Shown piece by piece: positions 58,233-60,808 of a DNA stretch of 64,000 nt. The position numbers were made by a program, and so were the translations under genes. Source of the DNA: a virus; the IMG/VR virus record IMGVR_UViG_3300042884_000193, positions 55,557-119,556 of that record, one strand, 5' to 3'. Position 1 is the first letter of the stretch; each line of letters opens with the position of its first letter. The notes beneath the pieces are model-generated. The model was not told the origin of the DNA. It saw nothing but the letters and a program-made list of their open reading frames with translations, and made no database searches.

Positions 58233-58592
58233 ATGGCAAGTTTAAAGACAGCAACCTTATTTGCAGCATTAAAAGATGCTGGTGTAACAAATGTAGAAAT
58301 TAGATATGATGGCGGAGGAGACTCTGGCCAGGTGGAAGATGTAGACTTTTATGGAGAAAATTTAGATACAGCTGTTCTTACTGATATGTATGAGGGGGAT
58401 ATGCAAGACCTAGCTTATCATATACTTGAGGAGCATTATCAGTATGACTGGTATAACAATGATGGTGGTTATGGAACCATTGACATTGACTTTGAAGAGG
58501 AACCTCCTACTATAAATATCAATGGTTATGTAAGAAATCTTACTGATGCTTATGGTTCAGTTGACCTCACAGATATTAAGTGGAAAGAGTAA
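58233..58592 (+). CDS. DUF6878-like protein
   Basis: YDGGGDSGQVE...DWYNNDGGYG, recognised from memory. Confidence 0.65.
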   Translation: MASLKTATLFAALKDAGVTNVEIRYDGGGDSGQVEDVDFYGENLDTAVLTDMYEGDMQDLAYHILEEHYQYDWYNNDGGYGTIDIDFEEEPPTININGYVRNLTDAYGSVDLTDIKWKE

Positions 58593-58615
58593 TGGCGCAT
58601 CCATATGATCATTAA
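58592..58615 (+). pseudogene. Relic 5-prime end of the DUF6915-like gene (MAHPYDH*)
   Basis: TAATG coupling to the upstream gene; the peptide matches the MSHPIEH start of 60467. Confidence 0.65.
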
Positions 58616-58633
58616 TAATTAAAACTAAAAACT

Positions 58634-58888
58634 ATGAGTAAATTACTAATCACTAAGACAGAACTCCTTCATGATAAGGAGTATGACTTTATGGAGCAGC
58701 AAGATAAAAGCCTTGCTGATGTATGTATAAAGTACGATGAGATAGTAGCAGTTAGGCAAAATGCAGATGAGGCTGACATTATTAACCCTGATATGTGTGT
58801 TGTCTATCTAAAAAGTGGAGAGCTATTCTTCATCTTCACACCCTATGAAGAGGTGTTACGTTTTATGAAACAATTAAACCAAGATTAA
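58634..58888 (+). CDS. Hypothetical protein, paralogue of 47965
   Basis: Aligns by eye over its C-terminal two-thirds. Confidence 0.7.
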   Translation: MSKLLITKTELLHDKEYDFMEQQDKSLADVCIKYDEIVAVRQNADEADIINPDMCVVYLKSGELFFIFTPYEEVLRFMKQLNQD

Positions 58889-58893
58889 AAGCT

Positions 58894-59115
58894 ATGGAAA
58901 AAGAAACATTTGAAGAATTTTTAGAAAGAGAAGGCTACGATGAAGGTAGAACCCAAGAGATATGGGAAGACGGTGCTAGAAAAGGTGCTGAATGGCAAGC
59001 CAAACAAATGTATAGTAAGGAAGAATTAGCAGATTTAATAGACGCTACTTTTCAAGGTAGACAAGATGTTGCAGATTTATTTTCTGAATTGTTAGAAAAC
59101 CTAAAAACTAAATAA
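58894..59115 (+). CDS. Small phage protein (GAEWQ..MYS family)
   Basis: KETFEE...GAEWQAKQMYSKEE. Confidence 0.65.
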   Translation: MEKETFEEFLEREGYDEGRTQEIWEDGARKGAEWQAKQMYSKEELADLIDATFQGRQDVADLFSELLENLKTK

Positions 59116-59117
59116 AT

Positions 59118-59330
59118 ATGGAAAAGAAACAAACTGCAGTTGAATGGTTGGAATGGCAAATCAATCTTGGATTATCTGAGAGAGGTTTAATTAGTGCTAT
59201 TAAAAAAGCCAAGCAAATGGAGAAGGAGCAGATACTTGATTCTTACATTGAAGGTCATAGCATATATGGTGAGTCTACAAATGCCGAACAATACTACAAC
59301 GAAACTTACGGAAAAACTAAAAATTTATAA
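59118..59330 (+). CDS. KQTAV-family small protein, copy 2
   Basis: MEKKQTAVEWL...QMEKEQI...YYNETYG. Confidence 0.75.
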   Translation: MEKKQTAVEWLEWQINLGLSERGLISAIKKAKQMEKEQILDSYIEGHSIYGESTNAEQYYNETYGKTKNL

Positions 59331-59332
59331 CT

Positions 59333-59527
59333 ATGGAAAATACAAAACAATTAGCATCAGTTAAGGCACTATTAAATCCTCCATATGTAGGTAAGTATTG
59401 CATAGGAGGTTATGGTGGAGGTTATGGTGGAGTGTGTATCTCTTTTACAAAAAAACCTAACTTCTTTCATCGTGCAATGATGAAGATGTTCTTAGGATGG
59501 GAATGGACTGACATAACTAAAAACTAA
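59333..59527 (+). CDS. Mini-gene, hypothetical
   Basis: KKPNFFHRAMMKMFLGWEW; GGY duplication. Confidence 0.6.
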   Translation: MENTKQLASVKALLNPPYVGKYCIGGYGGGYGGVCISFTKKPNFFHRAMMKMFLGWEWTDITKN

Positions 59528-59533
59528 ATAACT

Positions 59534-59788
59534 ATGGAAAAGAAACAAACTGCGGTAACACTATTATTTCAAGAATTTAGAGCTTTATCCGAAGTTATGA
59601 GAAAAGCAGGTGATGAGAAAAATGCTAACCTAATTGATTGTTTATGTGAAAGAGAGGAGGTAGCCAAGCAAATGGAGAAGGAGCAGATTATTGATGCAAG
59701 ACAAGATGGTATTGATGCTGTGTTTAAAGGATATTCAATAAGTAATGAGGAATACTACAACGAAACTTACGGAGGTCAAGATGAGTAA
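59534..59788 (+). CDS. KQTAV-family small protein, copy 3
   Basis: MEKKQTAV...QMEKEQI...YYNETYGGQDE. Confidence 0.75.
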   Translation: MEKKQTAVTLLFQEFRALSEVMRKAGDEKNANLIDCLCEREEVAKQMEKEQIIDARQDGIDAVFKGYSISNEEYYNETYGGQDE

Positions 59789-59864
59789 GTAATTATGGCT
59801 CATTCTTGTATGTATGATTATTTTGTTGTACATTGTACATGTATTAACATATAATCATACGTAC

Positions 59865-60482
59865 ATGAGCTCATTTAAACAAACACTTATTTTTAAAGCG
59901 GGTGGTATCCTAAAAACCCGTAAAGGTGAAGAAACAAACTGGACATACTTAGAGGATGTATCAAAAAATGGTACCACAGGTAAACGTTATATTAAAGCAA
60001 AATGTAAATGTGGTAGATTGAAAACCATATGTCTTAATAATATAAGAAATGGTAACAGTAGTTCTTGTGGATTATCTCCTTGTAGAGGAACTGAAAGAGA
60101 TAAAGATCCTGATGTGGGTCATAGAGCTATCCTATATGTATACAAAAAACATGCTCGCGATAGAGGGTTTAGTTTTGAGTTAGACTCTGATTATTTTAAA
60201 GAGCTTACACAAAAAAACTGTAACTACTGCGGTATTGAACCTATACAAGTTTATCAATTAAAGAATCCTAAAACTGGTAAATTAAGATCTGGTGTACCCA
60301 TATTATACAATGGTATAGATAGGGTAGACTCTTCTAAAGGTTACACTAAAGAAAACGTTGTAACCTGCTGTAAAGTTTGTAACAGAGCAAAAAGTAATAT
60401 GAGTCTAGAAGACTTTAAAAATTGGATTATGAAAGTACATTTGATAACAATTAAAAAATTAACAGTATGTCCCACCCTATAG
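59865..60482 (+). mobile_element. Free-standing HNH homing endonuclease
   Basis: CKCG, SCG, CNYCG and NGIDRVDSSKGYTKENVVTCCKVCNRAK motifs; likely start is MSSFKQ. Confidence 0.8.
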
Positions 60483-60808
60483 AGCACGCCAAATCCGCAG
60501 CAAGGCGGTGGGGAGGAACCTGGGAAGAATACATCCATATTGAGGAGTGGTTTGATGCTACTAAGGCCTGGTATGGTCACAGTATGCATAGATTATTCAG
60601 GCATCACAGTGAAGGTATCTTTGAATGTGAGAGGGTCTTCGGGCCCTTCTTTGTTAACTCAGTAGGTAAAAAAGTTATGACTCGCTATGTAGGCGAGCAA
60701 CATGTAAAAGAAGATTGCAATGGTTATCTACCAAGTGCAAAGGAGTGGATTACTAATATGAATAACCCTCCTGTATGGATGTTAAAAACTTTAAAAATAG
60801 AAGACTAA
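60467..60808 (+). CDS. DUF6915-like protein
   Basis: HP..HAKS.ARRWGG...HR..RHHSEGIFECE...GEQHVKEDC, recognised from memory. Confidence 0.7.
   Translation: MSHPIEHAKSAARRWGGTWEEYIHIEEWFDATKAWYGHSMHRLFRHHSEGIFECERVFGPFFVNSVGKKVMTRYVGEQHVKEDCNGYLPSAKEWITNMNNPPVWMLKTLKIED

Follow-up and report, generated by a model that had tools for sequence, protein, structure and literature searches.

According to a review of T-even endonucleases (PMC2988022), T4 endonucleases can move by one-sided homing, in which homology on a single side suffices and the other junction forms at microhomologies after resection, and the expression of I-TevI, segB and Aeh1 mobE is controlled by a hairpin with an internal late promoter. 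In mitochondria, mobile open reading frames (ORFs; Allomyces atp6; Glomus atp6, atp9, cox2 and nad3; PMC3630166) combine an endonuclease ORF with a foreign, diverged gene end, and the native end of the resulting hybrid gene stays behind as an untranslated duplicate nearly identical to that of close relatives. Phage HNH genes are known to encode PacI-like enzymes only rarely, in 2 of the 268 cases of PMC12724721. Here we analyse a 64,000-nucleotide (nt) window of phage DNA (bases 55557-119556 of the 119,556-base-pair virus record IMGVR_UViG_3300042884_000193, which has direct terminal repeats and is rated a complete phage genome), in which an array of small ORFs and a putative HNH endonuclease gene lie between a DUF6878-like gene and a DUF6915 gene. 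The insert is accompanied by truncated copies of the DUF6915 gene start, here called relics, and the intact DUF6915 gene is a chimera. We consider it probable that a PacI-like free-standing HNH enzyme linked to a diverged 5' end of its target gene invaded DUF6915 by one-sided homologous repair, with the array as cargo; the cleavage, the cut position, the repair pathway and the order of events are what we infer from the traces described below.

Our relatives are 80 IMG/VR loci (DUF6915 at 68-100% identity), across which the primase, GIY-YIG, DUF6878, DUF6915, g10 and metallopeptidase genes are collinear. The HNH gene is found in six of these loci and the array in three, the remaining 74 having neither. 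Array and HNH occur together only in L003-L005 (99-100%); in L054, L058 and L060, which lack the array, an HNH of 64-66% identity immediately precedes DUF6915. Among insert-free relatives the nearest are L006-L012 (DUF6915 84-90% identical), and in these DUF6878 abuts DUF6915 via TAATG, a string present at this junction in 49 of 71 HNH-free relatives. In the window, the DUF6878 stop TAA (58590-58592) likewise overlaps the ATG of relic 1 at 58592, which reads ATGGCGCATCCATATGATCAT TAA, or MAHPYDH*. The 21 nt of this relic (58592-58612) are identical at every position to the intact DUF6915 start of L006-L010 and L012 and at 20 of 21 to that of L011, and its position relative to the upstream DUF6878 stop is that of the real gene start in L006-L012. 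Consistent with this, blastn homology to nine relatives stops at 58612/58613 and restarts at 60508 or 60524.

A second start-like string, ATGGCTCAT, lies at 59795-59803, 70 nt 5' of the HNH start (59865). Relic 2, which includes it, matches the DUF6915 starts of L076 (11/11) and L053 (9/9), and L158, a carrier described below, has ATGGCTCATCC at this place. The pattern ATGGCNCAYYC occurs three times in the window against 0.20 expected (0 of 100 shuffles reach three), and two of the three occurrences are relics 1 and 2, both on the + strand. The two differ in allele type, since relic 2 is of the GCT type of the L053/L066 clade and relic 1 of the GCG type that only the window's own L006-L012 clade has. 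Because relic 2 also forms the base of a hairpin covering the HNH start codon, we regard it as a probable, not a certain, gene-start relic. The nearby TATGATTAT at 59813-59821 was considered as part of relic 2 and rejected, as it belongs to the leader common to all HNH1 cassettes. An earlier reading of this DNA from the letters alone (the sequence-only reading) had described a MAHPYDH* mini-ORF after the DUF6878-like stop, a second MAH start before the HNH gene, and an intact gene starting MSHPIEH at 60467 over the HNH end; all three are present, the last as a 16-nt overlap with the HNH stop at 60480-60482. It had also been staked on insert-free relatives having an MAHP-type start at the DUF6878 stop, and it survived this comparison, since L006-L012 start MAHPYDH via TAATG. 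That the insert and relics are a chimeric artefact of metagenome assembly is barely conceivable. The record is indeed a metagenome-derived virus genome, but seven further contigs, whose HNH is 100% identical, show the same structure; five of these are collinear with the window (98.1-99.8% over 57.5-60.8 kb), and two more, which are end-of-contig fragments, carry it as well.

The intact DUF6915 gene joins two unlike segments. Set against L007, the window differs at 34 positions in nt 1-81 and at three in the next 219 (Fisher p = 4e-19); set against L016, it differs at 11 and 67, respectively. Over three successive gene segments, 45/78, 25/27 and 193/195 positions are identical to L007, and 68/78, 24/27 and 130/195 to L016. 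The protein agrees with that of L016 throughout residues 1-35 and with that of L006 throughout from residue 28 onwards, which places the switch at about nt 81-96. These comparisons bear out the proposal of the sequence-only reading that a new start was supplied. Among HNH-free alleles, L016 is the nearest to the window over nt 1-81 (0.86), and the ten nt at which the two differ within the first 78 all lie at third codon positions and are silent, the window having G or C at eight of the ten. At the third positions of codons 2-27, G+C reaches 0.58 in the window, more than in any other of the 69 distinct alleles (median 0.23; 0.46 in L006-L010). Judged by these patterns, the 5' end is foreign and unusually G+C-rich at silent sites, and its true donor may be unsampled. 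The new 5' end is continuous with the ORF and, by eye, is identical to relic 1 at 12 of 21 nt.

The first roughly 20 codons had been noted as richer in G+C than the rest of the gene, and they are (60% in the first 60 nt against 37% in the remainder and 36.6% in the window). In part, however, this is a trait of the family, as the HNH-free L006-L009 reach 0.57 against 0.60 in the window. We therefore rejected G+C richness alone as proof of recoding, and by itself it does not mark the foreign segment.

The same kind of 5' end is found with the HNH gene elsewhere. The residues KSAA at positions 9-12 occur in 10 of 10 HNH1-bearing entries and in four of 74 HNH-free ones (L013, L014, L016 and L055). 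Similarly, G at nt 31 and nt 76 is present in all HNH1 alleles covering those positions and in four of 60 distinct HNH-free alleles. HNH1 and HNH-free alleles are told apart at nt 31 (codon 11, Ser to Ala) and at nt 76/78 (codon 26, CAT to GAG). Regardless of the remainder of the gene, nt 1-81 of each HNH1 locus find their best HNH-free match in L014 or L016. Thus, as far as the alleles compared indicate, the HNH is accompanied by a single 5' allele type in all lineages examined.

An HNH alignment search beyond the 80-locus set retrieved further carriers, including L148, L151/L152, L173 and L174; in metagenome contigs, the HNH alignment scan retrieved only two loci, L173 and L174. Over the HNH loci, the window's two relics included, relic lengths fall into six classes (11, 12, 21, 27, 48 and 81 nt). 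A motif scan finds 14 relic matches between the GIY-YIG gene and DUF6915, every one in an HNH locus; its two matches elsewhere are the L148 relic and one chance match inside a primase gene. A permissive scan (15 nt, at most three mismatches to the locus's own gene start) gives no relic-like match in the 71 HNH-free loci. Relics are present in six of seven HNH lineages and in 0 of 71 HNH-free loci. Small-ORF insertions are not lacking in the latter, as L015, L020, L023, L029, L049, L052 and L062 hold other small ORFs (55-134 amino acids, aa) between DUF6878 and DUF6915, none with a relic. Insertion as such hence leaves no relic, and relics go with the HNH. The cargo ORF of L148/L174 has no homolog in any other locus examined, and the idea that it is a gene normally found upstream of DUF6915 elsewhere was rejected on this ground.

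The HNH protein aligns with PacI (PDB 3ldy_A, E = 3.8e-7 over residues 113-179) across the Cys pairs and the catalytic D-R-x-D...N motif. It also matches PHROG 1035, 3322 and 3118 (endonuclease VII, endonuclease and HNH endonuclease; E = 1.2e-15 to 9.2e-12). Residues C119, C122, C168/C169, C172, D152, R153, D155, N164, N173 and K176, which align with PacI, are invariant in three homologs at 64-65% identity. The Pfam HNH model (PF01844) scores 17.1 bits, below its cut-off of 21.4 (E = 0.0064), and covers only the final 22 positions of the match. By blastn, a 131-nt stretch of the gene matches HNH genes of 936-group phages. Two traits recognised in homing endonucleases are found here: the gene is sporadic among collinear close relatives (6/80, and absent from L006-L012), and the adjacent gene bears a donor-type tract (nt 1-81). 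We accordingly read it from its sequence as a putative free-standing homing endonuclease with DUF6915 as presumed target, cleavage being a prediction. A group I or group II intron or an intein was rejected, because Rfam (E <= 1, 57500-61500) gives no intron family, and because the relic is closed by a stop codon and the gene opens with a start codon of its own.

The HNH gene is preceded by a leader of about 60 nt that is conserved in seven HNH loci by alignment and contains a promoter-like TGTACA-17-TATAAT (10 of 12 positions). The predicted hairpin at 59795-59874 (-31.9 kcal/mol, z = -5.9) pairs relic 2 with the HNH start-codon region, and Rfam finds only two weak hairpin (miRNA-model) matches at 59796-59875. 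The equivalent leader folds with z = -4.1 in L060 and -2.6 in L148, and weakly in L173 (z = -1.6). We further note that the window HNH begins MSS, which extends the hairpin pairing, where six other lineages have MSK.

These observations bear on the alternative that the locus reflects ordinary phage mosaicism at gene boundaries between co-infecting phages, with the HNH a passive passenger or inactive. Gene starts are common mosaic junctions, extra small ORFs occur at this very junction in HNH-free loci, and the HNH falls below the Pfam cut-off, its nuclease activity being predicted only. Against this stand the restriction of relics to HNH lineages, the single 5' allele type that accompanies the HNH, the alignment of its core with PacI and the conservation of the leader across lineages. 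We judge this explanation very unlikely.

The block is shared between unlike backbones. L158 belongs to another backbone clade (50% and 67% protein identity to the window in DUF6878 and DUF6915, respectively), and nevertheless has the same relic 1/spacer/o1 junction as the window, with a 100% identical o1. At the nucleotide level the two agree at 216/361 positions of DUF6878 (85/156 in its last 150 nt) and at 433/436 from TAATG onwards (58590-59025), a jump from about 55% exactly at TAATG. The array of L158 continues with a variant o2, a different small Cys-rich ORF and one o5-like ORF, followed by its relic 2 and the first 18 nt of the HNH leader, after which comes a different HNH (34% identical) that overlaps a DUF6915 start without codon 2. 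This HNH (4393-5175), for which we find no relative closer than 41%, holds two copies of an N-terminal Cys-containing module, of which the window enzyme has one. The independent pair L148 and L174 behaves in the same way. Identity is 24/59 ahead of TAATG, where a run of 29 identical nt begins; after it come a mosaic cargo ORF (45% protein identity) and a leader and HNH identical at 310/321 positions. Such jumps at TAATG between unlike backbones indicate that the block moves horizontally and that the relic marks its left edge. The suggestion of the sequence-only reading that the HNH could mobilise the array gains support from L158.

The array ORFs have no Pfam or PHROG match and include no recognisable recombinase or nuclease. 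They are linked by a repeated junction motif of the AAAACTAAATAACTATG type, and o3 and o5 are paralogs. The composition of the array is fluid even among near-identical genomes, as L086/L088 have lost o3-o4 and gained a hybrid copy. A second small-ORF array lies elsewhere in the window (47965-49297) with four copies of the same junction motif at 48484-49034; it starts with an o1 paralog (47965-48216, 39% identity, E = 1e-18) and ends with an o3/o5 paralog (49031-49297, 39%, E = 7e-12). Both arrays together hold six matches to the motif against 0.06 expected, and the second array may be the source or a sister of the one at DUF6915.

These properties could point to the array as the mobile unit itself, which would have inserted after codon 7 and brought a new start (leaving relic 1), the HNH later entering that start separately (leaving relic 2). 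The relic 1/array junction common to two lineages with different HNH genes shows that the array is not tied to one endonuclease, and the recurring motif, the o1 and o5 paralogs and the fluid composition fit a unit with a life of its own. No array without an HNH, however, is found among the loci examined; an exact scan of viral contigs for the o5/relic 2 junction returns only the eight known contigs, and one of metagenome contigs for the relic 1 junction returns no match. The array also lacks any recognisable enzyme that would move it, every other relic class is directly tied to an HNH cassette, the order of relic, cargo and HNH recurs in L148/L174 around an unrelated ORF, and small ORFs at this place in HNH-free loci are without relics. 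We thus consider a self-moving array unlikely. The sequence-only reading had the array and the HNH each insert and each supply a start; the relics and the new start stand, and the second part is modified, since relics of six lengths confined to HNH loci indicate that the HNH cassette supplies the new start and that the array is more likely cargo.

Under the preferred reading of invasion by the HNH cassette, the ancestral layout was likely that of L060, with the HNH between DUF6878 and DUF6915 and no relic. The enzyme would cut HNH-free DUF6915 alleles near nt 76-96, a position predicted from the end of the longest relic (nt 81), the end of the converted tract (nt 81-96) and the diagnostic codon at nt 76-78; on the same sequence comparisons, codons 11 and 26 are predicted to discriminate. 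The downstream break end would then invade the donor in the conserved gene body, and repair synthesis would copy the donor 5' segment, the HNH, the leader and whatever sits upstream, namely the five-ORF array in the window and the unrelated ORF in L148/L174. DUF6878 is among the module's most diverged genes, and lineages differ in it too much for homologous closure. The left side would therefore be sealed onto the resected break end by illegitimate or short-homology repair, and on that end the first 11-81 nt of the old gene would survive as the relic. By eye, the L173 sequence after the relic resembles the L060 DUF6878 end and leader, which fits an L060-like donor. Once a relic has formed, the block would be flanked by two gene-start copies and could re-enter any lineage with the relic as left homology arm.

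The two relics of the window then suggest two successive invasions. We favour an order in which the HNH would first have entered a GCT-type allele that already had the array upstream, giving relic 2, and the whole array-HNH block would next have entered the L006-like backbone of the window, giving relic 1, since relic 2 is of the L053/L066 type and relic 1 of the type of the window's clade. Because no intermediates are found, this order is offered as a reconstruction, and the reverse may also hold.

Tentatively, and with rather less than even confidence, we extend this to a self-contained cassette of old start, cargo, HNH and diverged new start, in which the relic would be a working left arm and the cargo arbitrary. 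The divergence between relic and new start would shield the carrier from its own enzyme and prevent loss by recombination between the repeats, and a relic beside the leader may serve as an operator or hairpin arm. Bracketed by two copies of the target 5' end, such a cassette could home into any phage with the target, however diverged the upstream neighbour. Engineered 'homing drive with recoded rescue' designs would thereby have a counterpart in nature.

Several observations weigh against invasion by the HNH cassette or parts of it. No intermediate, that is, an array without HNH or an HNH with relic 2 and without the array, was found among the loci examined. The HNH-free L013, L014, L016 and L055 carry the 'immune'-type 5' end, which may be a natural allele of a lineage. 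Many loci are near-duplicates of one another, so that locus counts are not counts of independent events. Relic 2 has only 11 nt and doubles as a hairpin arm, and 21-27 nt is a very short homology arm. A sharp boundary at TAATG could also be expected if nothing but the gene start is conserved there, and relic 1 of L158 has GCC, unlike both the window (GCG) and the clade of L158 (GCT), which leaves a crossover within the relic conjectural. Two nearly identical statements remain here, that the relic is the left homology arm on entry or that the gene start is the sole conserved sequence available for exchange. As for the leader, its fold is no better than shuffles in L058 and L151, and in the consensus fold compensatory change affects only 3 of 20 pairs, with a slightly unfavourable covariation term (+0.31). 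Given this weak covariation and uneven folding, the modelled hairpin is a reasonable but unproven control element of HNH expression, parallel to the hairpins with internal late promoters of I-TevI, segB and Aeh1 mobE (PMC2988022).

The region around the insert is a replication-type module (Table 1). The GIY-YIG gene occupies the same position in nearly all 80 loci (55-100% identity), being fixed where the HNH is sporadic, and its protein is without a DNA-binding extension. DUF6878 keeps 25-50% protein identity between lineages where its neighbours keep 55-75%, and 66-74% even against the nearest relatives. The DUF2201 metallopeptidase gene, intact in the window, is in two or three pieces in L055 (1697-4949), L073 (5429-5664), L052, L053 and L081, interrupted by ORFs of 235-277 aa that are LAGLIDADG-like by eye; L073 has an Rfam group I intron (84 bits). 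This suggests that the neighbouring gene, too, is a hot spot for endonucleases and introns. Extra DNA 3' of DUF6915 (about 515 nt in L005 (5340-5856) and L087, about 130 nt in L009, L011 and L012) is absent from the window. Among GenBank phages there is no close relative, with blastn of 57800-61300 giving only 128-131-nt matches and tblastn of DUF6878 giving none; DUF6915 is widespread in Streptomyces, Bacillus and Gordonia phages at no more than 55% identity, which is uninformative on the junction.

Table 1. Features of the window and relics in related HNH loci (positions in window coordinates).
Feature	Position	Strand	Remarks
Primase-like gene	56580-57551		
90-aa ORF			between the primase-like and GIY-YIG genes
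SegE-type GIY-YIG domain protein	57815-58231		138 aa; Pfam E = 1e-18
DUF6878-like gene	58233-58592	+	Pfam DUF6878 (PF21798), 57.5 bits, cut-off 24.3; syntenic in relatives
Relic 1	58592-58615	+	21 nt (7 codons, MAHPYDH) of the original DUF6915, then TAA; left edge of mobile block
Spacer after relic 1	58616-58633	+	resembles array junction motif; repeat family D4 (58621-58634, 59097-59110, 59513-59526)
Array of five small ORFs	58634-59788	+	no known family; read as cargo
o1	58634-58888	+	
o2	58894-59115	+	
o3	59118-59330	+	
o4	59333-59527	+	
o5	59534-59788	+	
Relic 2 (probable)	59795-59805	+	ATGGCTCATTC, first 11 nt of a DUF6915 allele of L053/L076 type; outer 5' arm of HNH leader hairpin
HNH cassette leader	59806-59864	+	promoter-like site 59827-59855 within predicted hairpin 59795-59874 over the HNH AUG
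Putative HNH (PacI-like) free-standing homing endonuclease gene	59865-60482	+	205 aa; overlaps DUF6915 start by 16 nt
DUF6915 gene	60467-60808	+	Pfam PF21866, 131.4 bits, cut-off 27, E = 1.6e-38
Foreign, donor-type 5' segment of DUF6915	60467-60547	+	81 nt; probably supplied with the HNH cassette
Backbone-type remainder of DUF6915	60548-60808	+	97-99% identical to L006-L009
135-aa ORF			3' of DUF6915
DUF2201 metallopeptidase/VWA protein	61212-62405		follows the 135-aa ORF
AAA protein			follows the DUF2201 gene
L054/L058 relic			16 codons of DUF6915 start, fused to DUF6878 stop
L151/L152 relic			4 codons, fused to DUF6878 stop
L148 and L174 relic			9 codons, fused to DUF6878 stop; then unrelated 115-aa ORF, then HNH leader
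L173 relic			27 codons (81 nt), fused to DUF6878 stop
L060			HNH present, no relic

The locus thus offers a base-by-base natural record of how a putative homing endonuclease may settle within the coding region of a conserved phage gene and, through a replacement start, spare that gene. Such a cassette carries unrelated genes from one lineage to another even where the genes next to it are only about 55-60% identical. From the relic series (11-81 nt) and the point where the converted tract ends, a cut site and two discriminating codons are predicted. If the relic is a portable homology arm, it would give selfish nucleases a general means of making mosaic boundaries in phages and of spreading accessory genes among them. 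In annotation, past endonuclease invasions may be recognisable by short 'orphan' starts that are fused to the stop codon before them.

Among the systems described, the locus comes close to T-even seg/mob 'intronless homing' (SegG co-conversion; PMC2988022), in which the endonuclease adjoins its target and is sporadic in close relatives, flanking donor sequence is co-converted, and a promoter lies within an RNA hairpin masking translation initiation. Unlike these, the window cassette sits inside the first codons of the target with a replacement 5' end and has left a fossil start; its enzyme is PacI-like, and passenger genes lie between relic and endonuclease. The terms 'duplicat' and 'remnant' are absent from that review. 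The one-sided homing study of 1999, as summarised there, used an engineered plasmid-phage assay, and here natural relics of six lengths are seen. Aeromonas phage Aeh1 mobE similarly places an HNH gene within the coding region of a conserved gene, nrdA, under hairpin control (PMC2988022); unlike the window, it splits nrdA into two expressed parts, with no duplicated, replaced gene end. With PacI and the PacI-like enzymes of lactococcal Skunavirus the window HNH shares the PacI HNH core, and it differs from them in its N-terminal half and in a presumed role in homing, not in restriction or DNA packaging.

A further close likeness is to the mitochondrial hybrid genes, which combine an endonuclease ORF, a foreign gene-end duplicate that is the expressed one and a native relic close to that of near relatives (PMC3630166). 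By its sequence the window shows the same combination: the new end, continuous with the ORF, is presumably the expressed one, and the relic is identical at 21/21 to relatives. The mitochondrial type, by the same source, replaces the 3' (C-terminal) end, often in frame with a LAGLIDADG or GIY-YIG ORF, and belongs to organelles. In the window the 5' end of a phage gene is replaced, the enzyme is an HNH, and the relic lies upstream, coupled translationally to the stop of the preceding gene. A full-text literature search (limited wording, without supplements) found no description of a 5'-end version in phages and no paper mentioning DUF6915, and the only paper in it holding the term 'partial duplication' concerns fungal mitochondria. 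The window locus is hence a 5'-end mirror-image analogue of the mitochondrial hybrid genes, not a member of that group, and what is new here is a phage, 5'-end, HNH version of the hybrid-gene strategy, with an unusually complete fossil series and with passenger genes.

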